Positions 2,380 through 41,580 of a DNA stretch of 64,000 bases are shown piece after piece. The stretch's first letter is position 1. Each line of letters starts with the position of its first letter. The notes beneath the pieces are model-generated. The model saw only the letters and a list, made by a program, of their open reading frames with translations. It made no database searches and was not told the origin of the DNA. Both the position numbers and the translations under genes were made by a program. This stretch comes from Patescibacteria group bacterium (GTDB lineage: Bacteria > Patescibacteriota > Patescibacteriia > UBA10025 > JAHIVO01), in NCBI GenBank assembly GCA_041650915.1, contig JBAZKE010000001.1, forward strand, positions 119,770 through 183,769, given 5' to 3'.

Positions 2380-2898
2380 ATGGCACAACACTACGAGATT
2401 CTCTTTATTGTCTCTTCGAAGGTTGACGATGCGCAGCTCGAAGGGGTTGTTAAGGGTGTCAGAGAAGAAGTAACGAAGCTCGGCGGACAGATCACTAAAT
2501 CTGAATCGCTCGGCAAACAGAAGCTCGCGTACGAGATCAAGCACCAGCAGTTCGGCACGTACGTTCTGATGGAGTTCGATGCGGAGGGTGGCGCCTACCG
2601 AAAGCTCAATGGCAGCTTGCGCCTGAAGCCGGAAATCATCCGGCACCTCATCGTCCGGAAGCGGGTCAAGACCGCCAGCGAGGTGGCAAAAGAGCAGCGT
2701 ATCCAGGAGAAAGCGGCGGAACGGCGCGCTGCGGAAGCGAGAGAAGTTGAGGAGCAAGATCGCGCTGCGGCACTGCCTGCAGAAAAGAAAGAGCCTATCG
2801 CGCAGCGGAAAGCCGCTGACCGGGCAAAAGAAGAGAAGAAGATAAGCCTCGAAGACCTCGATAAAAAGCTCGACGATATCCTCAAAGAGGAAATTTAA
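2380..2898 (+). CDS. rpsF: 30S ribosomal protein S6 with Lys/Glu-rich C-terminal extension
   Basis: MAQHYEILFIV...KQKLAYEIKHQQFGTYVLMEF is S6 signature; rpsF-ssb-rpsR conserved order. Confidence 0.9.
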   Translation: MAQHYEILFIVSSKVDDAQLEGVVKGVREEVTKLGGQITKSESLGKQKLAYEIKHQQFGTYVLMEFDAEGGAYRKLNGSLRLKPEIIRHLIVRKRVKTASEVAKEQRIQEKAAERRAAEAREVEEQDRAAALPAEKKEPIAQRKAADRAKEEKKISLEDLDKKLDDILKEEI

Positions 2899-2925
2899 CC
2901 GGCTGCAGCCGCAGGGAACGAACCT

Positions 2926-3363
2926 ATGAATCTCAATAGAGCAATGATCATCGGTAACGTCACGCGTGATCCTGAAGTGAGGTCTACTCCTTCAGGCCAA
3001 AACGTTGTATCGCTCGGCGTGGCGACGAACCGCCGGTGGACCGACCAGTCGGGCCAGAAAAAGGAGCAGGTTGAGTACCACAACGTCGTTGCGTGGCGGA
3101 AATTGGCTGACATCATCGGCCAGTATGTGAAGAAAGGCAGCAAAATATATATAGAAGGGCGGCTGCAAACCCGTTCGTGGGACGACCAGAGCGGAACGAA
3201 GCGGTACCGGACGGAGATTGTAGCGGAGAATATGATTATGCTCGACCGGGCGGGCTCAGTTCCGAGCGGGAGCAACCCGAAGCCGGCATCAAGCAGCGAT
3301 GGTTCCCAGCCGGCGCCTGCGGGGGGAGAACCCGAGATTAACGTTGAAGATATTCCATTCTAA
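2926..3363 (+). CDS. ssb: Single-stranded DNA-binding protein
   Basis: OB-fold SSB N-terminus MNLNRAMIIGNVTRDPEVR, Gly/Ser/Pro-rich tail, acidic C-terminal DIPF. Confidence 0.9.
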   Translation: MNLNRAMIIGNVTRDPEVRSTPSGQNVVSLGVATNRRWTDQSGQKKEQVEYHNVVAWRKLADIIGQYVKKGSKIYIEGRLQTRSWDDQSGTKRYRTEIVAENMIMLDRAGSVPSGSNPKPASSSDGSQPAPAGGEPEINVEDIPF

Positions 3364-12691: not shown

Positions 12692-12916
12692 ACGGGGTAA
12701 GTATAGCATGGGTGGTTTTGGCGCCACCCCAGGTTTAATTTGTTTACTCCGAGCGCACCCAGAGACGGGTGCGCTCCGCTGTTTACCATGCATTTTGTCA
12801 CCATCTGCAAAGCGCAGGCAGAGACGCCCGCGCTTTAAAGCCACGGAACTGACCAGATGCGGATCCTTTTTGTTAATATTAGCGAAATATTGGTAATGAT
12901 ATCCACAGCACGGGGC

Positions 12917-26606: not shown

Positions 26607-28403
26607 ATGCCAGACAATATCGAGGAAATTAAATCAAAGGTCGACGTTGTCGACCTCATACAGGAGTACATACAGCTCAAACCGGCGGGGACAAACAGCT
26701 TCAAGGCAAATTGCCCCTTCCACAATGAGAAGACGCCGTCGTTTGTCGTATCGCGCGATAAGCAGATATGGCACTGCTTCGGGTGCGGCGAAGGCGGTGA
26801 TATTTTTACTTTTGTCCAGCAGATGGAGGGCCTCGAATTTCCCGAAGCGCTCCGCATGCTCGCCAGAAAAGCGGGCGTCCAGCTCCAGTACCAGGATCCG
26901 GCGATCAGCAGCCGGAAAACGAAGCTCTACGATATCTGCAAAGCGGCTGCCGATTTTTACCACAAGTTGCTGCTCGACCACCCGAAGGCGCAGTTCGTGA
27001 GGGAGTATCTCGGGAAGCGGGGCGTGTCTGGCGAAACGGTTAGCCGGTGGCAGCTCGGGTACGCGCCCGATGCGTGGGATGTTCTCTCTGCGTACCTCAA
27101 AAAGAAGTATCCGGAGGACGACATCTTCCAGGCTGGCCTCACGCTCAAGAAGGATCGGGGAGTCGGGTTCAATGACCGGTTCCGCAACCGCCTCATGTTT
27201 CCGATCTGGGATACGAACGGCAATACCGTCGGATTCGGCGGCCGGTGGCTCGGGAAGGAGGAGAACATCGCAAAGTACATCAATACCCCGCAGACCATCA
27301 TCTACAATAAGAGCAACGTACTGTACGGCATCGATAAGGCAAAGACTGACATTAAGAAGTCTAAGCTTGCGGTCGTCGTTGAAGGCTATATGGACTGCAT
27401 CGCATCGCACCAGGCGGGCGTTACGAACGTTGTTGCTTCATCGGGCACGGCGCTGACGCCGGACCAGGTGCGGCTCCTCAAGCGATTCACGTCGCATATC
27501 GCGTTCGCTTTTGACCAGGATCTCGCGGGGGACACCGCAGCGAAGCGGGGAATTGAGGTCGCATGGCAGGAAGAGATGAGCACGAAGGTTATCCTGCTGC
27601 CGGGCGCATCCAAGGATCCCGATGAGCTCATCAAAGAGCAGGGCGTCGGCGTGTGGAAGCGGGCGATACAAGAGGCGCAATCGGTCATGGATTACTACTT
27701 TGAGTCGACACTCAAGAATGTCGACGCGACTGACGTTGAGGTGAAGAAGAGCGCAGCAAAAACGCTGCTGCCGGTAATTGCAAAGCTCGTCGACCAGATA
27801 GAGCAAACGCACTATCTGCAGAAGCTTGCGACGACGCTCCGTGTCGACGAGCGCGTGCTCCGCGATAAGCTCGGCCAGCTCAGGGCGAAAGCCTTGCGTC
27901 CCTCAGCGCCCGCAGCAAACCTCCATGAAAAAAAGAATATCGACCGTTTTCACACGCTCGCGGAGAGCGTGGTCGGCATAGCGCTTAATTATCCCGATCT
28001 CGTTCCGCGCATCAGCGAGACGTTGCCTCCTGACTATATCCAGGATGAACAGCTGCGCCGACTTTACAAACAGGCGATAGTTTATTATACTGAAAAGCAC
28101 ATTTTTGATTACCGGGCTTTTCTCAAAATGCTCGGATCGGCGGATGGTGGCGCAAGCCTCAGAACGTACGCTGAGGTACTCTCGCTCCGCGTGGAGCATG
28201 AGTATGCAAGCCTCGATGAAAGGTCTCTTGAGCAGCTCGTTACGCACGGTATACGAGAGCTCAAGGCGCAGCACGTACGCTCCGCGCTCCGCGATGTTGA
28301 GGCGCAGCTACGCGAGGCTGAGGCGAATCGCAATTCAGCAGCGGTAGATCAGCTGAGCGCCCGGTTTACCGAGCTTACCGCCGAGCTTAAGCAGTCGGAG
28401 TAG
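26607..28403 (+). CDS. dnaG: DNA primase
   Basis: CHC2 zinc finger CPFHNEKTPSF...HCFGCGEGGD, TOPRIM domain (VVVEGYMDCIA), DnaB-binding C-terminus. Confidence 0.9.
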   Translation: MPDNIEEIKSKVDVVDLIQEYIQLKPAGTNSFKANCPFHNEKTPSFVVSRDKQIWHCFGCGEGGDIFTFVQQMEGLEFPEALRMLARKAGVQLQYQDPAISSRKTKLYDICKAAADFYHKLLLDHPKAQFVREYLGKRGVSGETVSRWQLGYAPDAWDVLSAYLKKKYPEDDIFQAGLTLKKDRGVGFNDRFRNRLMFPIWDTNGNTVGFGGRWLGKEENIAKYINTPQTIIYNKSNVLYGIDKAKTDIKKSKLAVVVEGYMDCIASHQAGVTNVVASSGTALTPDQVRLLKRFTSHIAFAFDQDLAGDTAAKRGIEVAWQEEMSTKVILLPGASKDPDELIKEQGVGVWKRAIQEAQSVMDYYFESTLKNVDATDVEVKKSAAKTLLPVIAKLVDQIEQTHYLQKLATTLRVDERVLRDKLGQLRAKALRPSAPAANLHEKKNIDRFHTLAESVVGIALNYPDLVPRISETLPPDYIQDEQLRRLYKQAIVYYTEKHIFDYRAFLKMLGSADGGASLRTYAEVLSLRVEHEYASLDERSLEQLVTHGIRELKAQHVRSALRDVEAQLREAEANRNSAAVDQLSARFTELTAELKQSE

Positions 28404-28432: not shown

Positions 28433-29704
28433 ATGCCAATTAAGGCGAAAACGAAAGCAAAAAAGACAATCAAGCATACAACGAAGGCGAATAAAAAAAC
28501 TCGGGCAGCTCGCGCACCGGCACAGAAAAAAACAACCCACCGTAAGGCATCGGTAAAAAGGGGAGGGACACAGGGGACTAGCCGAACAGCCCTCAAGAAA
28601 AGAGCATCCGCGAAAAAGGTTGTGCTCGATCTTAGGAAGCTCGAAAAGCTGTATGCAAAGGGGCATTCGCGCGGTTTCGTTACCGAGACGGAGATCCTCT
28701 ATACGTTTCCCGAGCTAGAAGAGTACGTTGCTCAGTACGAGGATTTTTTGGAACAGCTCGAAACAGGCGGCGTCCAGGTTGTGGAGAATACCGGCAATAT
28801 TCTCGATGATCGGCAGTCGATCCTGGACGAGAAGCCGAAGAAAGAGGTCGACCGCCGCCGGCTCGATCTTTCTGATATTTCAAACGATTCTATCCAGATG
28901 TACCTGCGGGAGATCGGTAAGGTACCGTTGCTCAAACAGGAGGAGGAGCTCCAGCTCGCCAAGCGGAAGGAGAAGGGAGACGTGGAAGCGCAGCGCAAGC
29001 TCGTTGAAGCAAACCTCCGGCTCGTTGTCTCGATCGGCAAGAAGTTTACCGGCCGCTCCCTCTCGCTCCTCGATCTGATCCAGGAGGGCAACATCGGCCT
29101 CTTCCGTGCGGTGGAGAAGTTTGATTACCGCAAGGGGTATAAATTTTCTACCTACGCGACGTGGTGGATCCGCCAGGCGATCACGAGAGCGCTCGCCGAC
29201 CAATCACGCACTATCCGCATCCCCGTGCATATGGTTGAAACGATCAACCGCTTCCAGCAGGTTGAGCGCCAGCTAATCCAGGATCTCGGCCGGGAGCCGC
29301 TTCCGGAGGAGATTGCGGCCGAGATGGGCGAACCGGTTGACAAGATACACCATATTATGAAAATATCCCAGGACACGGTCTCGCTCGAGACATCGGTTGG
29401 CGACAGCGACGACGAGGATTCAGTGCTCGGTGACTTTATTGAGGATGTGAAGACGATCACGCCGGACCGTGTCGCTGCGATGCAGCTGCTCAAAGACCAC
29501 GTCCGCGAGATCATCAGGGAGCTCTCAGCCCGTGAACAGAAGATCCTCGAGATGCGGTTTGGGCTGCAGGACGGCGTTTCACACACGCTTGAAGAGGTTG
29601 GCCAAGAGTTCGGCGTTACCCGCGAGCGCATCCGCCAGATTGAAGCAAAGGCGCTCGAAAAGATTGAGGAGCACAAAGGCATGAAGAAACTGCGCGATTA
29701 TTAA
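28433..29704 (+). CDS. rpoD: RNA polymerase sigma factor RpoD (sigma-70) with basic N-terminal extension
   Basis: Regions 1.2-4 present: region 2 ([20 protein letters not shown]), region 4 ([24 protein letters not shown]); immediately downstream of dnaG. Confidence 0.92.
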
Positions 29705-29725
29705 AAAAGAGTTTTTCACGATCAT

Positions 29726-29766
29726 CCCTGCACCACTCCGCGATAGCTCCCCGTCATTCGACGGGG
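29726..29766 (+). repeat. Partial duplicate of tRNA-Asn 5' end fused to a 7-bp-stem hairpin
   Basis: ccctgcaccactccgcgatagctcc (29726-29750) is 22/25 identical to the leader+5' end of tRNA-Asn at 29786-29810, followed by ccccgtc-attc-gacgggg hairpin. Confidence 0.6.
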
Positions 29767-29796
29767 CAGGCAATGGTCACATGATACCCGCACCAC

Positions 29797-29868
29797 TCCG
29801 CGATAGCTCAATGGTAGAGCAACCGGCTGTTAACCGGTAGGTTGTCGGTTCGAGCCCGACTCGCGGAG
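29797..29868 (+). tRNA. tRNA-Asn (anticodon GTT), copy 1
   Basis: Acceptor TCCGCGA/TCGCGGA, D-arm GCTC-AATGGTA-GAGC, anticodon stem ACCGG/CCGGT loop CTGTTAA, T-arm GTCGG-TTCGAGC-CCGAC; acceptor helix extended by flanking complementary cccgcaccac/gtggtgcggg. Confidence 0.85.
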
Positions 29869-30045
29869 TGGTGCGGGGATTTTAATGTCTAGATAGCGAA
29901 ATGGGCCGAGGCAACGAAGTAAACTGAACTGCTTCAGTTCACGAGTGCCGAGGCGGGCATGGCGATGCGGGAACCGCCGACGTGCCCAGGAAGAGCAACC
30001 CCCGCCAAAGGCGGGTCAGCCTCTGGCTGAGGCTGCCTGCCCCGC

Positions 30046-30128
30046 CGACTGGCGGGGTTAACCGGAAGGCATGCCCCGTAGGAGCGAAGAGACTTACGGG
30101 GTTGTCGGTTCGAATCCGACTCGCGGAG
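30046..30128 (+). repeat. tRNA-Asn-derived 3' fragment (anticodon-arm piece + T-arm + acceptor 3' strand) with 33-nt hairpin insertion
   Basis: ggggttaaccgg...ggggttgtcggttcgaatccgactcgcggag; last 25 nt 23/25 identical to tRNA-Asn 3' end; no matching 5' half, so not a functional tRNA. Confidence 0.65.
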
Positions 30129-30268
30129 GTGATTGTTTTTTTATTGCGGAAAACGCAAAGGCTGCCTGCCTCGCACTCTAAACGGAGTGAAGAGCTGCGG
30201 GGTTAACCGGTAGAGGCTGCCCTGAGCGCTGGGCCGTTGTTTGGCAGTTGGTTCCTATCTTATTTACC

Positions 30269-30667
30269 CTAATCGTGATGTTGCTCGTTTGACTTATTTT
30301 CCTTGCCAAGTTTTTTCATGACGTTTTGGTTCAGCGCATTGCGCCAATTTTCCGGGTATGTTTTGGCGCTCTTGAGTAGCTCGTCGCAGAATGATGCCAC
30401 ATCCTTACCCGTAATGCTGAGCACCGGCCTGCCGTTTGCCTCGCTTTCTTCAAACAGTCCCAGTAAATCTTTCAGAATGACGACCAGGTCCATGCCGCCG
30501 CCGGCAGAAAACCTAAACATGTACTTCTTTATTTCATTATAGACAACCCGATAGTCGTTGGGCAGCGCTTTTGCGCGCGCTTCCATCTTTCTCCATTCTT
30601 TTTTATCCCCGGTGACTTTTTTAAAAAAGTTATTTATTTCTTTAAAAAAGGTAGCCATATTATTCAT
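30269..30667 (-). CDS. DUF1048-family protein (PadR-associated)
   Basis: KKEWRKMEARAKALPNDYRVVYNEIKKYMF...LLGLFEESEANG...VASFCDELL matches DUF1048 pattern; 4-nt overlap with upstream PadR gene; low GC. Confidence 0.6.
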   Translation of the reverse strand: MNNMATFFKEINNFFKKVTGDKKEWRKMEARAKALPNDYRVVYNEIKKYMFRFSAGGGMDLVVILKDLLGLFEESEANGRPVLSITGKDVASFCDELLKSAKTYPENWRNALNQNVMKKLGKENKSNEQHHD

Positions 30668-30981
30668 CCTTTTAGTTTATTAATGCGTGATGATACAAAT
30701 TCCCATTTCGCCCAAAACATTGCGAGTTCCTTTTTCCCCGCGTTGTTGAGTGTGTAGAATTTGCGCGGCGGGCCAATGGTGGACGATTTTTTCTTGATGT
30801 TTACGAGAGCGTCTTTCTCGATGCGCAGGAGGATGGTATATACCGTACCCTCCACGACATCTGTAAATCCAAGTTCGCGCAGCGAGGACGCGATTTCATA
30901 GCCGTAGGTCTCGCCGCGGCTGATGATCTCGAGAACGCAGCCCTCGAGCACGCCTTTGAGCATCTCAGTTAAATTTTGCAT
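30664..30981 (-). CDS. PadR-family transcriptional regulator
   Basis: Winged HTH MLKGVLEGCVLEIISRGETYGYEIASSL...GTVYTILLRIEKDALV; start at MQNLTEML. Confidence 0.75.
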   Translation of the reverse strand: MQNLTEMLKGVLEGCVLEIISRGETYGYEIASSLRELGFTDVVEGTVYTILLRIEKDALVNIKKKSSTIGPPRKFYTLNNAGKKELAMFWAKWEFVSSRINKLKG

Positions 30982-31098
30982 GATATGCACCTCCTTTCTA
31001 TTGATTTTATTGGTGATATATAGTAACACTTAGTACTGCTATATCGTATCACATAGTAGTATGTGGTGTCAAGGAATACACCGTAAGGCGAGGCAGGC

Positions 31099-31112
31099 GG
31101 GTTGTCGGTTCG
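31099..31112 (+). repeat. Third tRNA-Asn T-arm-derived fragment (gggttgtcggttcg)
   Basis: Exact 13-mer ggttgtcggttcg shared with tRNA-Asn (29841-) and fragment at 30099-; followed by ggttcgc/gcgaacc hairpin; lies between the two PadR cassettes. Confidence 0.5.
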
Positions 31113-31381
31113 CCGCGAACCACTAAAAAGCTCACGGCACCCATGTACCCTTTCGTAGTACATGACGAATTTCGTCTTCGGAGTTGGAGATTTTTAATGG
31201 AGCAATTCCGCAGAGCGGGGTAGGTTGCCCCGGCGCATAGTCGGGGCTCGTGGAGTTCGCCTTTTTATTCGCGTTGAAATTGATAGTGAAAATCTCGACG
31301 CACCGCGAAAGCGGCGCGGAGATCCCACGCAGAGGCAGGAGTTTGGCTTGTCCCGACAGAAACCGCAGCATCAGGAGGGGC

Positions 31382-31409
31382 TTGACAGTACTATTCGGTG
31401 TATTATACT
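31382..31409 (+). promoter_or_regulatory. Promoter for second PadR operon (TTGACA-16 nt-TATACT)
   Basis: TTGACA 31382-31387, TATACT 31404-31409, ATG at 31431. Confidence 0.5.
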
Positions 31410-31430
31410 CAATATATCGCATTACGATAT

Positions 31431-31757
31431 ATGGACCAACAATTACTCAAAGGCCATTCCCGACTCCTCATTCTGGCGGCTTTGAATAAGCGGCCAATGC
31501 ACGGGTATGCATTATCGGAATTCCTCAAAGAGGAAATGGCCGAAACTTTTAAATTTGGTGTCGGTATGTTATACCCGCTTCTCCATAAACTCGAGAAAGA
31601 TACATATATTGTCGGACGCTGGGAAGAATCTGGTGGATTGCCGAAACGGGTGTATCGGCTTACCAAACAAGGGGAAAAAGAGTTCAAGAAAAAAAAGCAA
31701 GAATGGAACAATTTGTCTCTGCTGGTGCGAAACATTATTAGCCACTCAACGATATGA
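31431..31757 (+). CDS. PadR-family transcriptional regulator
   Basis: LLKGHSRLLILAALNKRPMHGYALSEFL...GMLYPLLHKLEKDTYIVGRWEE winged HTH PadR signature. Confidence 0.75.
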   Translation: MDQQLLKGHSRLLILAALNKRPMHGYALSEFLKEEMAETFKFGVGMLYPLLHKLEKDTYIVGRWEESGGLPKRVYRLTKQGEKEFKKKKQEWNNLSLLVRNIISHSTI

Positions 31758-32590
31758 CCAATGGGCAATTTTTAAAGGATTTTCAACATCACCTCGAGGT
31801 TGGCGGCCCTCAGCGTAATGAGATCGTCAGTGAGGTGAGGAGCCATTTGCAGGAACAGCCAGCTGGTCAGCTTGGTAACCCGGCGGTAGTAGCGAAAAAA
31901 ATGAACCGCGTGCATTTGGGATTGTTTGCTTCATTTTTTTCTTTGGCGATGGCAGCTACGCTAGTAACATTACTCTTTGATGTAGTTGTCCCTTATGTCG
32001 GACTCATTTATCACGGAAGTCCAGTGTGGAAAAATGTTTCATGGATATCCTCAATACTCTGGCAATGCATCCCGTTTATTTCCCCAATCCTGTTTATTTA
32101 TGGCGCGCATGCCATCAGCCGCATGCGGAATCGGTGGGTTTACGTGGCGATACTTGTAGCAATTTTTACGGCGGGATTTTCCATGCAACAGGAGCTGATG
32201 CAGGCAACGGGTTATTTATTAATCTCGACGGTTAGCGGCAGTACGTCATTGTGGTCGATACATATTCAGCCAATTGTTACTTTTTTCTTTACCTACGCCA
32301 TCATCGGGTATGCGGTGATGGCCATCACGGCGGGCCGACAACTGATCATTTCTCGTCATCCGGTTATTGACATTACGCTTGCTTTTATTCTTGGAGGCGG
32401 GGCCGCCCGCTTCTTGCTACCGATGGTTTGGAACGCCATCACGTCGTTTCATTATACGATGGCCATGTCCGAATGGTCAGCCTCCGCCTTTCAATATCTC
32501 ACGGTGGCTAGTATCGGCATCGGTCTGTTATGCGCGGGCATTGAATGGCTCCGTATACGGTCTGTAAAAAAACTCGCCACCATCAAATAG
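31754..32590 (+). CDS. DUF1700/HAAS-like polytopic membrane protein (PadR-associated)
   Basis: N-terminus MTNGQFLKDFQHHLEVGGPQRNEIVSEVRSHLQEQ matches DUF1700 N-terminal pattern; followed by ~6 TM helices; ATGA overlap with PadR. Confidence 0.55.
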   Translation: MTNGQFLKDFQHHLEVGGPQRNEIVSEVRSHLQEQPAGQLGNPAVVAKKMNRVHLGLFASFFSLAMAATLVTLLFDVVVPYVGLIYHGSPVWKNVSWISSILWQCIPFISPILFIYGAHAISRMRNRWVYVAILVAIFTAGFSMQQELMQATGYLLISTVSGSTSLWSIHIQPIVTFFFTYAIIGYAVMAITAGRQLIISRHPVIDITLAFILGGGAARFLLPMVWNAITSFHYTMAMSEWSASAFQYLTVASIGIGLLCAGIEWLRIRSVKKLATIK

Positions 32591-32749
32591 CTCTTAAGCA
32601 GTATCTCAAATGTCATTTATTCCACGAATGGTGCGAGATTAGCCGGAAGGCTCCTATAGGTTCCAGACCGTAGTGGGGAGCTTTAGTTTTTTTAGTTGCG
32701 CATGGTGATGAATATTGACTGTCGGGGGCACACACATTACAATTGATAT

Positions 32750-34237
32750 ATGAAAACATTTTTTTTCCTAGGCCTCGTAAGTGCAGGTATTTTGTTTTTT
32801 TGGGTTTCGCCTGCAAGCGCTGATCTTGGCCCGCCGCCCGTCTTTACCCAGGGTGGCATGTTGCAAACCGATGCCGAGGCGACGAATGTGGCTATGGTGA
32901 ACGAGGAGGTTGTATTGAAATATAGCCAACCCCATAGTGATGATTTGTTCGGTACGGTGATGCCAGTTCATGTAACTGCCACATTTACCATGCGAAATAC
33001 CGGCACGGAAGCAGAAACTCTGCAGGTTTATTTTCCCTCAAACGATAGTGTTTTTATCGGCGGCTATGAGGGGGAGTATGGGACGGTGAGTAATTTTACC
33101 GTTAACGGCCGGGTAATCGGTGATGAGGGCCTCGGCCACATTGCTGCGAATATCAATAGCGAGGACCAGTCTATCCTGGTCTACCAATGGGAAGAAACTT
33201 TTTTACCGGGAGAAGATACCGATCTTGTTATTTCATATGATGCCAAGAGCGGTAAGGATTACGAAGTGTACTACCTCACGTATGTGCTCGGCACTGGCCG
33301 GGGCTGGAAAGGGCCGATCGCAAACGGCACGGTGTCCTTTGAACTGCCTGAAACTCTGACAGATTATAGCGTGGTCGATGAAGCCCCCTTGGTGGCGGAA
33401 AACGCTTTGCCGTATACGGTGGCAGGCAATACGATAACCGTGGCACTGAAGGACTACGAGCCAGAATCCGATGCAGTCATCGTTCTTGGTGTCTATAATT
33501 TTGATTTGGTGCAGCAGGTTGAAAACCTCAAACGGAATGCAACGAGCTTTGAAAATACGCTTAAGCTTGCCGGTGCCCTCCACGCTCTCTCGAGCGGTCC
33601 GCACTGCGTTTTCTGTACGGGGAAAGCTTCGGATATGGCTCTATCGTATTATTTGGAAAGTTTGGAACAGGCGGCTGCGGGAAGCGATTTAGACCGTGTG
33701 CTTGCCTCGTTTATGTTCGGGGATACAGGATTGTATGAAGACTGGACACCACCTAGCCCGTCAGAGGCAAAAGCATTGTTTTCTTTCCCGGCTTGCGGAG
33801 TTGATGATACAAACTGCCGTTATAGCGCGTATTTCGACCGCGGAGGGCTTGGCGAAACACCATTCAGCTTTGATTATACTACCCACGCCTTGAAGCATAC
33901 GGATTTCTTGGAGCTGTATGTTTCAAAAATACGTTCGTATGATTCGGTAACCGCTGATGCTATTGAGCGCTATATCCAGGATGCACCAAAAGCCTACGAA
34001 TGGCAGAATGGGCAGTATGCCCTCCCAGAGGCCGCGGACGAAGGGGCCAATGTGAATAGCACTGTGGTAAATACAAATGCCACGATTACGAATACATCGT
34101 CAGAAAATAAAAACTCATCAGCCGCGTCGGTTTCTGCTCGCCATGATGACACGCAACGCAACTGGCAATTGGTCGGTTTAGGCGTTTTGGTGGTTGCGCT
34201 GGCTCTCGGCTATTTGGCAGTTAAAGGAAAAATCTAA
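32750..34237 (+). CDS. Hypothetical exported protein with C-terminal TM anchor
   Basis: Signal peptide MKTFFFLGLVSAGILFFWVSPASA, C-terminal LVGLGVLVVALALGYLAVKGKI anchor; no recognisable domain. Confidence 0.6.
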   Translation: MKTFFFLGLVSAGILFFWVSPASADLGPPPVFTQGGMLQTDAEATNVAMVNEEVVLKYSQPHSDDLFGTVMPVHVTATFTMRNTGTEAETLQVYFPSNDSVFIGGYEGEYGTVSNFTVNGRVIGDEGLGHIAANINSEDQSILVYQWEETFLPGEDTDLVISYDAKSGKDYEVYYLTYVLGTGRGWKGPIANGTVSFELPETLTDYSVVDEAPLVAENALPYTVAGNTITVALKDYEPESDAVIVLGVYNFDLVQQVENLKRNATSFENTLKLAGALHALSSGPHCVFCTGKASDMALSYYLESLEQAAAGSDLDRVLASFMFGDTGLYEDWTPPSPSEAKALFSFPACGVDDTNCRYSAYFDRGGLGETPFSFDYTTHALKHTDFLELYVSKIRSYDSVTADAIERYIQDAPKAYEWQNGQYALPEAADEGANVNSTVVNTNATITNTSSENKNSSAASVSARHDDTQRNWQLVGLGVLVVALALGYLAVKGKI

Positions 34238-34277
34238 ATCCGAACGCCCAGGGATGAGCAACCCTGCTATGCGGAAT

Positions 34278-34309
34278 GGGTTGTCCTGCCGTGTGACGGG
34301 CTCACGGAG
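34278..34309 (+). repeat. Degenerate tRNA-Asn 3'-end-like fragment
   Basis: gggttgtcctgccgtgtgacgggctcacggag aligns with gggttgtcggttcgaatccgactcgcggag (shared gggttgtc...ctc(a/g)cggag). Confidence 0.35.
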
Positions 34310-34432
34310 TTGGGCATGAGTGCGGGGGATAGGGGCGTCGCAAATCGTCTTTTTGGGTTGATTATTTGCTTGAATAAAGCTAGTAATTGAGGGATAATCA
34401 ATATATTCTTATCCCTACAAGAATCATGGACT

Positions 34433-35494
34433 ATGCATATCCACGAAGTATTTGGCTCAATAAAGAACAACAAGAAATTTGCAGTACCTATAATTGTTGC
34501 AGTTGTTTTGGTTATCGTGATTGCCGTTATCTATTTCTTCGCATTCAGCGCTCCGGAGAGGCAAGCCGGGTTGGGGCAATTTCTTGTTAACACAAACCGT
34601 ACCGATAGCGGCGAAGTGGTAGATAATTTAGTTTTAAAAGATTTTATTAAAAGCCCGGTTGCGTTTAAGATTGTTTATTTACTGCACGGTAGTCCTGACA
34701 TTCAACCGGGTGCCTATCAGATTTCTAAATCCATGTCAGTCTGGGAAATCGCTGATATTTTGAGCCAAGAGCCAAACATGAAGTGGGTGACCGTTCCCGA
34801 GGGTTTACGCAAGGAGCAAATCGCCAACATTCTGGCGGACAAGCTCCATTGGAGTGACGAACAAACCGCTAAATGGGTAACTACCTACACGGCTATGAAG
34901 TTTGATTACGTGGAAGGCGTGTATTTCCCTGATACCTATCTTATTCCCGTTGACGAGGCACCGCTGGCTGTGGCTGAACGAATGCAGAGGCGCTTTGAAG
35001 AGCAATTCACTCCATACTCAAAAGAAGCTCTTGAACAGAACATCCAGTGGACAAGCGTCATCAAGCTCGCTTCCGTAATTCAGCGAGAAGCCGCAGGTAG
35101 TGAAGATATGCCCTTGATAGCCGGGATATTATGGAACCGTCTGAACCAGAAGATGAAGCTTGAAGTTGACGCCACCATTCAATACGTTCGGGACAGTTTA
35201 GCGCATTACGGCACGGCACCCGATTTGTATCAAGATAAGAGCTACACGGCAGAGGGAACGTGGTGGAAGCCGATTTTGGTGGCGGACAAGCAGATCGATT
35301 CGTTGTTCAATACGTATCTTTATGCGGGCCTACCGCCGCGACCTATATCTAATCCTGGTTTGGATGCTATTCAAGCTGTCTTACATCCTGAAGAAACCGA
35401 CTGTTTGTATTACCTGCACGATAATACCCGGACCATTCACTGCGCCAAGACTTTGGCTGAGCATGAGCAGAATATTGAGGAGTATCTTCGCTAA
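34433..35494 (+). CDS. mltG: Endolytic murein transglycosylase MltG (YceG-like)
   Basis: N-terminal TM, YceG-like domain with WNRLNQKMKLEVDATIQY and PPRPISNPG motifs. Confidence 0.8.
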   Translation: MHIHEVFGSIKNNKKFAVPIIVAVVLVIVIAVIYFFAFSAPERQAGLGQFLVNTNRTDSGEVVDNLVLKDFIKSPVAFKIVYLLHGSPDIQPGAYQISKSMSVWEIADILSQEPNMKWVTVPEGLRKEQIANILADKLHWSDEQTAKWVTTYTAMKFDYVEGVYFPDTYLIPVDEAPLAVAERMQRRFEEQFTPYSKEALEQNIQWTSVIKLASVIQREAAGSEDMPLIAGILWNRLNQKMKLEVDATIQYVRDSLAHYGTAPDLYQDKSYTAEGTWWKPILVADKQIDSLFNTYLYAGLPPRPISNPGLDAIQAVLHPEETDCLYYLHDNTRTIHCAKTLAEHEQNIEEYLR

Positions 35495-35714
35495 ATATTA
35501 CGCCGAACCAAGCCAAATGGGTCTCCGCCTACAATGTTAATTTTCAAGATGACTGGCGGATCCGTCTCTGGCGGAAAGAATGAGACACCCCTGTGTACTG
35601 TTTTATTTGTCTCATTCGTACCCCGAAAGACCCCCTGAGATTCCTTGAAAAAGACCCCCAAAGGCTATAGACTGTAGCGGTGAGTTCTGCAATAATTTTC
35701 CTATCTATCGCACG

Positions 35715-36710
35715 ATGGACACGCGCCAGCTGGAAAAAATTATGGAGCATGAGAAACCGTACCGACTGCGACAGGCGCGGCGTGCGGTGTTTCACGATTT
35801 TATCGGCGATTGGAATGAGGCGACCATGCTGGCGACCGATCTGCGGCAGGAGCTGAATAGCGGATGCCCGCTCGGAATGGACAAAAAGCTGTATGCCTCG
35901 GCTGACGGACAAACAGTTAAGGCGCTCCTGAAGCTTGGTGACGGGAAAAAGGTTGAAACGGTGCTGATGCGGCACGGAGACGGCCGCAATACGGTTTGCG
36001 TCTCTTCCCAGGTTGGGTGCCCCATCGGCTGCGTATTCTGTGCCACTGGCCAGATGGGATTCCAGAGGAACCTGGCGCTCGGTGAAATCATCGACCAGGT
36101 GCTTATTTTCAGCAGGCTGCTGAAGGGGGATTCAGCCCGGATTACCAACGTTGTATTCATGGGCATGGGCGAGCCGTTCCTCAACTACGATACGGTCACG
36201 GCAGCTTTACGGCTGCTCAATTCGCCGGATTACTTCGGTTTGGGCTCGAGAAAGCTGGCCGTCTCGACTGCCGGCATTGTGCCCGGAATCGAGAAATTCA
36301 GCCGGGAGGATTGGCAGGTCAACTTGGCGGTCTCACTGCACGCGCCCGACAATGCCCTCCGTACCAGGCTGATGCCCATCAACAAAGCGTACCCGATCGA
36401 AAAGGTGCTGGCGGCGGTTGATGCCTACATCGCCAAGAAAAACAGGCGGGTCATGTTTGAGTACCTGATGATCAGGGGAGTCAATGATTCCACGGAGCAT
36501 GCCCGGCGGCTCGCGAAACTCTTGAACAAACCGCTCTACATGGTGAATGTAATTAGGTACAACCAGACCGGCTCGTACCAGCCGTCCGACGGCGATACGA
36601 TCTCAAAATTTATGCAGGTGCTGCTCAACGCCGGCCTGACAGCCACCCAGCGCTACAGCTACGGCAACGACATCAAGGCAGCGTGCGGCCAGCTGGCGGC
36701 CCTGCCGTGA
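35715..36710 (+). CDS. rlmN: 23S rRNA/tRNA m2A methyltransferase RlmN (radical SAM)
   Basis: Radical SAM CPIGCVFCATG, RlmN-specific C-terminal Cys (GNDIKAACGQLA). Confidence 0.88.
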   Translation: MDTRQLEKIMEHEKPYRLRQARRAVFHDFIGDWNEATMLATDLRQELNSGCPLGMDKKLYASADGQTVKALLKLGDGKKVETVLMRHGDGRNTVCVSSQVGCPIGCVFCATGQMGFQRNLALGEIIDQVLIFSRLLKGDSARITNVVFMGMGEPFLNYDTVTAALRLLNSPDYFGLGSRKLAVSTAGIVPGIEKFSREDWQVNLAVSLHAPDNALRTRLMPINKAYPIEKVLAAVDAYIAKKNRRVMFEYLMIRGVNDSTEHARRLAKLLNKPLYMVNVIRYNQTGSYQPSDGDTISKFMQVLLNAGLTATQRYSYGNDIKAACGQLAALP

Positions 36711-36859: not shown

Positions 36860-36875
36860 AAGGGAGGTGAGAAAT

Positions 36876-37130
36876 ATGCCAAATTATAATGGGCAAGGGC
36901 CTTATTGGGGCGGCGGTCCGGCAGCCGGCTGGGGCATGGGTTCGTGCGGAGGCGGGCAAGGTTTTGGTCCTCGCTACGGACGTGGACGCGGGTTTGGACG
37001 CCGTTTTCCAGTGCGGTGGACTCGCAAGGATGAAGAGAAAGCGCTGGCCGACGAGGAAGCGATGCTCAAAGAAGAGCTCGAAGCGGTGCAGACAGCACGG
37101 AAAGAGCTCGGGTCTGAGCCAACAAAGTAG
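36876..37130 (+). CDS. DUF5320-like small Gly-rich protein with C-terminal coiled coil
   Basis: MPNYNGQGPYWGGGPAAGWGMGSCGGGQGFGPRYGRGRGFGRR followed by DEEKALADEEAMLKEELEAVQTARKEL; strong RBS. Confidence 0.55.
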   Translation: MPNYNGQGPYWGGGPAAGWGMGSCGGGQGFGPRYGRGRGFGRRFPVRWTRKDEEKALADEEAMLKEELEAVQTARKELGSEPTK

Positions 37131-41173: not shown

Positions 41174-41249
41174 TCCGGGGTAGTTGAGTTGGTACAACGC
41201 CGCACTGTTAATGCGGATATCGCTGGTTCGAATCCAGCCCCCGGAGCCA
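41174..41249 (+). tRNA. tRNA-Asn (anticodon GTT), copy 2, CCA encoded
   Basis: Acceptor TCCGGGG/CCCCGGA, anticodon stem CCGCA/TGCGG loop CTGTTAA, T-arm GCTGG-TTCGAAT-CCAGC, 3' GCCA; sequence clearly different from copy 1. Confidence 0.85.
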
Positions 41250-41280: not shown

Positions 41281-41580
41281 TATGGCATCTGGGGATTTAT
41301 TGAGGATTTTGCCCTAAAACTCGGCAAGCAGGGGGTGCGGGTTAACGCCATCGCCCCGGGCGGCGTGGTCACTGAAGGTGTGGCTAAGATGGGCGAAGCG
41401 GCAGCTACTACTGGTATTGACATGAAGGAGATGACCAAGCAATTCATGGCTTAGATACTGCTCGGACGCATGGGCGAACCTGATGGGATTGGCGCGGCAG
41501 TATTATTGCTTGCAAGCGATGCTTCCGCGTACATGACCGGTTCAATGATTGTCGTTGACGGCGGAGCACTGTTGGCATAA
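41281..41580 (+). pseudogene. Short-chain dehydrogenase/reductase (SDR) C-terminal fragment with in-frame stop
   Basis: Frame translates ...ALKLGKQGVRVNAIAPGGVVTEG...[48 protein letters not shown]: typical SDR C-terminus lacking N-terminal Rossmann part and interrupted by TAG at 41452. Confidence 0.65.

Follow-up and report, generated by a model that had tools for sequence, protein, structure and literature searches.

The subject of this analysis is an array of tRNA-Asn gene copies in a 64-kb stretch of Patescibacteria DNA (the window), and all coordinates given are positions within that window unless a relative is named. The array follows the genes for DnaG (26607-28403) and RpoD (28433-29704), the latter lying directly before it. 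It consists of one working tRNA, a 5' partial copy upstream of it, and, downstream, four or more degenerate copies that point the same way. These last retain patches of tRNA sequence, and each ends in its own T-run. Low-GC, self-promoted PadR modules and other genes lie inside or between the copies, and this content varies among relatives at the same positions.

The functional tRNA-Asn(GTT) gene (29796-29869, forward strand) was called by ARAGORN and by Rfam (72.5 bits) and does not encode CCA. It is enclosed by a leader/trailer helix of 10 bp (CCCGCACCAC / GTGGTGCGGG) and followed by a T-run, the unit spanning 29787-29892. The helix covaries in the relatives L084, L087, L089, L093, L097, and L098, and a tRNA set on a covarying helix with a T-run looks like the loop of an rpoD operon terminator or of a processing stem. 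Across lineages the helix measures 7-13 bp and its sequence is wholly different (CCCGCACCAC, CTCCCCAGAAC, CCCTCAAAGC, ACTCTGC), with complementarity kept. Upstream, the 5' partial copy (29721-29775, forward strand, defined by spliced alignment) comprises upstream flank and tRNA positions 1-12, a 22-nt GC hairpin (CCCCGTCATTCGACGGGGCAGG), and positions 13-19. Over its first 29 nt (29721-29749) it is 90% identical to 29781-29809, a match that takes in 16 nt of the upstream flank. A partial duplicate before the tRNA had been reported in an initial annotation made from the sequence alone; it stands, and is now extended by positions 13-19 beyond the hairpin. Equivalents of the 5' partial copy were found in L091/L094, L093, and L096.

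The first downstream copy, F1 (29893-30141, forward strand, spliced alignment), is a nearly full-length, hairpin-expanded degenerate tRNA-Asn that is homologous to L098 8304-8452 (77%) and to L091. It contains, in order, tRNA positions 6-16, an 86-nt D-loop insert, positions 17-28, a 30-nt insert that falls in the anticodon stem, positions 29-32, a 22-nt anticodon-loop hairpin, positions 33-43, a 32-nt variable-loop hairpin, and positions 44-72, followed by a T7 run. The segment 30100-30128 is identical to 29840-29868 at 27/29 positions, with a Smith-Waterman score of 48 against a shuffle maximum of 25 and an nhmmer E value of 7.6e-6. It is the only segment to reach significance against the tRNA alone. 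The piece at 30046-30128, initially described as the first 3' fragment, contains this segment and forms part of F1. Measured against the clade consensus of the relatives' functional tRNAs, positions 44-72 of F1 are 29/29 identical. A complete cloverleaf with both acceptor strands was found in none of the degenerate copies, F1 itself lacking the 5' acceptor strand and carrying four inserts; ARAGORN and Rfam call only 29796-29869 and 41174-41249 as tRNAs in the window.

The third copy is divided in two. Its left part, F2a (30160-30213, forward strand), consists of GGCT, a 38-nt anticodon-loop hairpin, and GTTAACCGGTAG (positions 33-44), and its right part, F2b (31099-31200, forward strand), of GGGTTGTCGGTTCG (positions 43-56), a hairpin at 31141-31164, and CGGAGTTGGAGATTTTTAATGG, a sequence similar to the 3' end of the tRNA with its trailer. 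The 12-mer GTTAACCGGTAG (30202-30213) and the 13-mer GGTTGTCGGTTCG (31100-31112) are exact, adjacent in the tRNA (33-44 and 44-56), and bracket a DUF1048-PadR gene pair, which therefore occupies the variable-loop position of the third copy. Singly the two are borderline, with scores of 24 and 26 where the null distribution reaches 25, and jointly they are significant; exact matches of these lengths are expected ~0.02 and ~0.005 times per 6 kb of single strand. The 13-mer, initially placed at 31099-31112, is accordingly exact as claimed, with its significance shared with the 12-mer.

Further downstream the copies become more degenerate. F-new (31205-31270, forward strand), missed in the initial annotation, is a 3' copy made up of GGTAGGTTG, a 20-nt hairpin, CTCGTGGAG, and a T-run. 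Its segment 31216-31262 scores 29 against the relatives' pseudo-copies (background 23), and it has a terminator-like site at 31244-31258. F4 (32633-32700, forward strand) is a possible degenerate 3' copy with a T7 run, a repeat match of 82% that has no statistical support: against the tRNA it scores 26 and is not above chance, the maxima of shuffled windows being 26-31. The weaker fourth fragment suggested earlier near 32655-32695 falls within that same shuffle range and is not upheld. F3 (34246-34370, forward strand) is a degenerate copy of positions ~17-72 with the T arm replaced and a trailer/terminator (AAATCGTCTTTTTGGGTTGATT), and it abuts mltG. Its segment 34278-34309, the third fragment as initially proposed, does not rise above noise when aligned to the tRNA of the window (score 20-23). 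Against the L082 pseudo-copy, however, 34246-34309 scores 41 (background 23), 34303-34369 matches the L086 tRNA 3' end and trailer, and L098 has a degenerate homologue after its orthologue of the 495-aa gene. F3 is therefore convincing, as judged from sequence matches, because of these relatives and not because of the tRNA of the window. Comparison with shuffled controls thus favours 30100-30128 singly and the 12-mer and 13-mer jointly, the distal pieces failing it against the tRNA alone. The alignment of repeats proposed for defining cassette boundaries gave no common 5' boundary of the fragments, which start at positions 6, 17, 28, 33, and ~40. F-new and F4, which flank the second PadR module, have a general pattern in common with no extended match when compared by eye. 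A further candidate at 31283-31345, upstream of that module's PadR gene, was considered as a decayed copy of the second tRNA-Asn type and dropped (local alignment score 16).

The genes of the array form small units. DUF1048 (30269-30667) and PadR (30664-31029) make up a two-gene module on the reverse strand (30269-31029), with a promoter-like site at 31072-31043 and a GC content at third codon positions (GC3) of 0.55/0.59. The second module (31398-32590, forward strand) encodes a PadR protein of 119 amino acids (aa) and a 278-aa membrane protein and has a promoter-like site at 31382-31409. It is followed by the gene for a putative secreted or anchored 495-aa protein (32750-34237, forward strand, promoter-like site 32715-32743). 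The gene for MltG/YceG (34433-35494, forward strand) has a GC3 of 0.51, low as in the modules, and after it comes a gene for an RlmN-like radical SAM protein (35715-36710). A promoter-like site precedes every module, and the DUF1048-PadR unit is inverted relative to the others. The initial gene calls were confirmed apart from DUF1700 for the 278-aa protein, which is just a weak HAAS match under the Pfam threshold.

The low-GC stretch noted initially is borne out, with a GC content of 0.43-0.52 against 0.52-0.60 around it, and GC3 gives a sharper picture still. In the six genes of interest (DUF1048, both PadR genes, and those for the 278-aa protein, the 495-aa protein, and MltG) GC3 is 0.45-0.59, compared to 0.683±0.048 in the 32 other genes of the window. 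The six lie 2-5 standard deviations under the window mean and lower than nearly all of the 32 others. Low GC3 is also seen in the homologous modules of L098 and L082. By this measure the six genes have the foreign base composition of a tRNA-targeting island.

Relatives were obtained through RpoD homologues and one metagenome scan with a tRNA T-arm/acceptor pattern, the species-level genome collection containing distant relatives only. The RpoD homologues are 78-94% identical to the window protein and the clade is one of Kerfeldbacteria-like Patescibacteria. The order dnaG-rpoD-tRNA-Asn is present in every relative, and the downstream content is different in each lineage. A degenerate second copy follows the real tRNA in L082, L089, L091/L094, L093, L097, and L098, and the relatives' second copies have GC-rich hairpins in the same four loops (D, anticodon, variable, and T). 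Relatives without the island (L091/L094, L093, L096, L097, L082, L089) also show the 5' duplicate and the first fragment, and proximal copies occur in relatives with no genes between the copies.

In L098 (RpoD 81% identical) the order is tRNA, pseudo-copy, a reverse-strand PadR module inside the pseudo-copy, secreted protein, and distal-fragment homologue. The L098 orthologue of the 495-aa protein (76-77% aa identity) has the same relative position. This order matches the window, so the core arrangement is old. The PadR proteins of the two genomes are just 28% identical, and the partner in L098 is a HAAS/Sensor protein, not DUF1048; the L098 module is thus non-orthologous but in the same place inside the pseudo-tRNA. 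The insertion points differ: the L098 module interrupts the anticodon-loop hairpin, and that of the window lies at the variable loop. An ancient, fixed arrangement, which the initial annotation had set against its own proposal, is therefore found for the core through L098, with the module content still exchanged.

Other relatives carry the same genes at other positions. The pair of PadR and 278-aa genes directly follows the second tRNA-Asn in L082 (75% nucleotide and 70% aa identity to the window pair), and mltG (79% aa identity) comes directly after rpoD-tRNA-Asn in L087/L088, compared to which the window has ~4.5 kb of extra DNA. The empty site initially envisaged, rpoD-tRNA-rlmN, was seen in none of the relatives examined, L087/L088 having rpoD-tRNA-mltG instead. 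With downstream content that differs per relative, low GC3, and modules that move, the initial proposal of a tRNA-Asn hotspot holding foreign DNA is upheld, and sequence comparison supports the tRNA-Asn 3' flank as a variable hotspot. L081, L082, and L087 also have a second tRNA-Asn, 4.6-7.6 kb beyond the first; in L086 the distance is 1.8 kb, across an assembly gap.

Several observations on the relatives concern the tRNA flank itself. A ~130-nt element (AAGTTGTCAGGCGACCGTTYCCC ... GTTCGAATCCG ... AGATTCGAACCA) opens as a tRNA 3' copy starting from the anticodon loop and directly adjoins the tRNA end. It occurs at L086 11340-11480, at L089 1400-1350, 920-790, and 190-60 (minus strand), and at L095 3028-2965. 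The L086 copy starts exactly at GTTAACC after the tRNA end, and in L089 two copies lie on either side of one gene, forming a repeat-gene-repeat unit. The L001 and L096 contigs stop exactly at tRNA-Asn, and in L086 an N gap (12839-12849) is followed by a second rpoD 3' end and tRNA-Asn.

In the window, the second tRNA-Asn(GTT) gene (41174-41249, forward strand, ARAGORN/Rfam) is strongly divergent from that at 29796-29869 and is the only one of the two to encode CCA. A 47-codon remnant directly after it (41311-41454) matches the C-terminal part of a short-chain dehydrogenase only, covering positions 158-188 of 236 of the adh_short_C2 profile. This truncated gene suggests rearrangement at the second tRNA-Asn too. 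Between the RlmN-like and DUF134 genes, 67 nt (36874-36940) are 81% identical to L091/L094 335-401, in a region that is otherwise non-syntenic.

The conservation of the proximal copy was gauged with third codon position identity in rpoD as the neutral yardstick. In the comparison of the window with L091, identity is ~68% in the leader and ~80% across the trailer and the first part of the D-loop insert, compared to 36-38% at rpoD third positions, where synonymous sites are saturated. Between the window and L098 the pseudo-copy is 77% identical over 150 nt and rpoD third positions 46-48%. Pseudo-copy identity so far over rpoD third positions suggests that the proximal copy is constrained and is not a neutral scar. 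F1 and the leader are conserved over the neutral rate, with gene conversion as a possible cause, and these alignments call for selection on the proximal copy or for recurrent gene conversion or exchange. The RNA fold of F1 has a z-score of -3.8 against shuffles, and the constrained tRNA-derived element beside tRNA-Asn is a candidate new non-coding RNA. Rfam returned tRNAs only, both at the gathering threshold over the whole window and at E≤10 over 29500-36000, so a known RNA family was rejected.

The inserts in the copies fall close to a known intron site. Group I introns at position 35/36 of Patescibacteria tRNA-Asn have been described as frequent and shown to be self-splicing (Nakagawa et al. 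2026, PMC13011429). In L095, a complete second tRNA-Asn copy (2670-2961, minus strand) lies 67 nt after the first and contains a group I intron of 220 nt at 35/36 (Rfam match of 224 nt, 2715-2938, RF00028, 61.6 bits, gathering threshold 50). This second gene is not called by ARAGORN. The anticodon-loop hairpins of window F1, window F2a, L093, L097, and L087 are within one or two bases of the 35/36 site. They fall between G34 and T35, that is, between G and TT of GTTAACC. The inserts begin with GCCYGCCYCG in window F1, window F2a, L093, and L097; the start in L098 is closely related (GCCTGTCCTG), and that of the second tRNA-Asn type in L087 is looser (CTTGCCCCG).

Individual hairpins recur in different loops. 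The family cccgcccgcaacgcctcgcaagc...gcttgcgtggYgggcggg (L093 6600-6645; L089 1060-980, minus strand) occupies the variable loop of one of these genomes and the D loop of the other, and ccccRtaggagc...gacttacgggg is found in the variable loop of the window and the anticodon loop of L093. The GC hairpins may be mobile. Hairpins of the genome-wide repetitive extragenic palindromic type were considered and rejected: the CGGGGCAGGCA motif occurs 5 times in the 64 kb, where 1.5 occurrences would be expected, and 3/5 lie in this locus, which argues against a dispersed repeat. In two relatives (L089 1085-1352, minus strand, and L087 18010-18290) whole tRNA-Asn genes are nested in the anticodon region of hairpin-filled tRNA-Asn copies. 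The nested genes keep their own leader/trailer helix and T-run, and both tRNA-Asn sequence types are represented.

A recombinase was sought in several ways. No integrase, resolvase, transposase, or IntI-like gene was found in the ~48 open reading frames of the window with Pfam and PHROGs, in keeping with the recombinase-free window first described, and no recombinase was found within ±10 kb in ten relatives. A viral origin was rejected after exact-pattern scans of IMG/VR gave no match to the 3' half of the tRNA, to the T-arm variant of the F3 type, or to the hairpin block of F1.

Taken together, the array is best read as an old, partly conserved recombination hotspot, which the sequence comparisons favour over a recent island made by an integrase. 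The fuller form of this reading, in which a conserved array of tRNA-Asn copies after dnaG-rpoD acts both as terminator-like spacers and as recombination landing pads, is held at about even confidence. The array would have been born by duplication and recombination at the tRNA-Asn gene, with the complete intron-bearing second copy of L095 as a surviving form. Dead copies would persist because, as structured spacers resembling terminators, they separate transcription units that converge or lie in tandem, and would be kept as hairpin and T-run units because each module has its own promoter-like site. The tRNA-derived sequence and its hairpins would be preferred sites for the insertion or swapping of incoming DNA, and the loops would repeatedly take insertions, from 20-nt hairpins up to whole modules. 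DNA that has been taken up could enter by recombination, homologous or illegitimate, or a recombinase encoded elsewhere could insert it.

A number of points weigh against this account. The recombination route at the array is one that we infer, and the terminator or spacer role is read from hairpins and T-runs alone. No shared junction or core sequence was seen by eye at the module borders, the reading does not explain how the hairpin inserts arose, and each of F4, F-new, and F2 by itself scores close to noise when set against the tRNA. Compensatory changes occur in just 8/39 predicted pairs of the constrained element, with many pairs broken, a suggestive result from 3 sequences only. The high similarity could also be due in part to gene conversion, or to the whole tRNA region having recently been exchanged laterally, and not to selection.

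A bolder version holds that the hairpin-expanded copies are an undescribed class of selected, tRNA-derived landing pads for self-contained PadR-type modules, which a recombinase encoded elsewhere or a host enzyme would shuffle between the two tRNA-Asn loci and between genomes. This is a speculative proposal in which little confidence is placed. If true, it would amount to an integrase-unlinked cassette-exchange system on a tRNA scaffold.

The initial annotation suggested repeated integrations leaving attR fragments. In its classical form, this explanation proposes serial site-specific integration at tRNA-Asn in which each event displaced the prior 3' end as attR, with the integrases and most of the island DNA later lost to leave remnants akin to cis-mobilisable elements (CIMEs). 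The same-strand 3' copies, each with its own trailer, would be expected from such a history, as would the low GC3 of the locus genes. Several copies (F2a, F-new, and that of L086) have their start in the anticodon loop or close to it, and tRNA gene fragments left by integration are common (PMC9897764). F3 is a candidate for a far-end attR, with a genuine, native-type trailer beside mltG, a gene that adjoins the tRNA in L087; however, it starts at about position 17, which is not a crossover site, and it is also present in L098 and thus old. Serial integration is nonetheless unlikely. It leaves unexplained the 5' partial copy, the unlike 5' boundaries of the fragments, units of just 0.07-1.6 kb, and the tandem complete copies of L095. 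No integrase turned up in the 64 kb or within ±10 kb in ten relatives, and the IMG/VR scans for sequences of the locus had no match. A simple series of recent attR scars is not supported: the 5' duplicate and the first fragment recur in island-free relatives and are constrained, the fragments have no common 5' boundary, and the proximal copies are gene-free in relatives.

Descent from an intron is given a similarly low probability. The proximal degenerate copy would derive from an intron-bearing second tRNA-Asn that lost self-splicing, leaving the anticodon hairpin as an intron residue and the remainder as decay. Such introns are frequent in Patescibacteria (PMC13011429), the second copy of L095 carries one at 35/36, and the hairpins of F1, F2a, L093, L097, and L087 lie near this site with similar starts. 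The window hairpin at 31135-31165 is also 27/31 identical to a hairpin of the L095 intron (score 38, background 23), but on the opposite strand, and as the sole match of 31 nt it is too little, so a group I intron remnant in the window was rejected. Rfam gave no signal for RF00028 in 29500-36000 even at E≤10, and the inserts have no sequence in common with the ends of the L095 intron. Similar hairpins also fill the D, variable, and T loops, which are not known to hold introns, and decay does not account for the constraint. Intron descent is plausible for the anticodon-loop insert only.

An integron-like array, also raised at the outset, is very improbable and falls short at each defining feature examined. 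The hairpin and G|TTAACC unit would act as attC, and the modules as cassettes moved by a recombinase encoded elsewhere. The inserts between G and TT of GTTAACC, the hairpin-rich repeats at module borders, the different modules at the same site in the window and L098, and the repeat-gene-repeat unit of L089 all resemble such a system. However, the modules are self-promoted and one is inverted, no conserved core/inverse-core pair was found and the junctions have no common sequence, and the window yielded no IntI-like gene. The insertion points are also unequal, as the module sits in the variable loop in the window and in the anticodon-loop hairpin in L098. Finally, the view that all similarities past 30128 are chance and the low-GC block ordinary gene-to-gene variation has hardly any credibility left and is largely refuted by the comparisons with relatives: the distal fragments are within shuffle range against the tRNA, but F3 and F-new match the relatives' pseudo-copies over background, F3 has a syntenic counterpart in L098 and resembles the trailer of L086, the exact 12-mer and 13-mer are collinear and adjacent in the tRNA, and six consecutive genes have GC3 below nearly all of 32 others.

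The hotspot reading is of interest as Patescibacteria have tiny genomes with few recognisable mobile elements, and here gene modules are swapped at a fixed place. If the copies are exchange sites, they would be a simple sequence marker for horizontally exchanged DNA in the phylum and a pointer to a new recombination route. The constrained element of the window and the intron-bearing copy of a relative would form a natural series on the decay or reuse of tRNA gene duplicates. On the practical side, such arrays break assemblies and may mislead tRNA annotation.

Among known systems, tRNA-linked islands with attR fragments are similar in that a tRNA marks a variable region with same-strand 3' fragments downstream and cargo of foreign composition, and one window fragment (F3) keeps a native trailer next to the ancestral neighbour mltG. 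Unlike these islands, the array has no integrase that was found and no constant fragment boundary, contains a 5' partial copy, and is built of very small units. Its proximal copies are also conserved and constrained across deeply diverged genomes and have loops filled with hairpins. CIMEs are what is left of integrative elements that no longer have an integrase; they keep att sites on both sides and can be mobilised in trans. The window resembles them in that small groups of genes, lacking a recombinase, lie between att-like pieces of tRNA, but no matching att pair surrounds any window module and no helper element was seen.

The group I introns at 35/36 of tRNA-Asn (PMC13011429) occur in the same phylum, the same tRNA, and within one or two bases of the same site, and L095 carries one; the window inserts differ in being 18-40-nt hairpins that are also present in three other loops. 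Integron cassette arrays likewise have hairpin-forming repeats between small gene units, and in the window the insertion point is inside the GTT triplet. In contrast to integrons, the array has no IntI, attI, Pc, or R''/R' core pair, and its units are self-promoted and of mixed orientation. Small RNAs processed from the 3' external transcribed spacers of tRNAs are tRNA-linked structured RNAs. The window shares with them a conserved structured sequence directly downstream of a tRNA, with which it is probably co-transcribed, but differs in that the element is itself derived from a tRNA copy.

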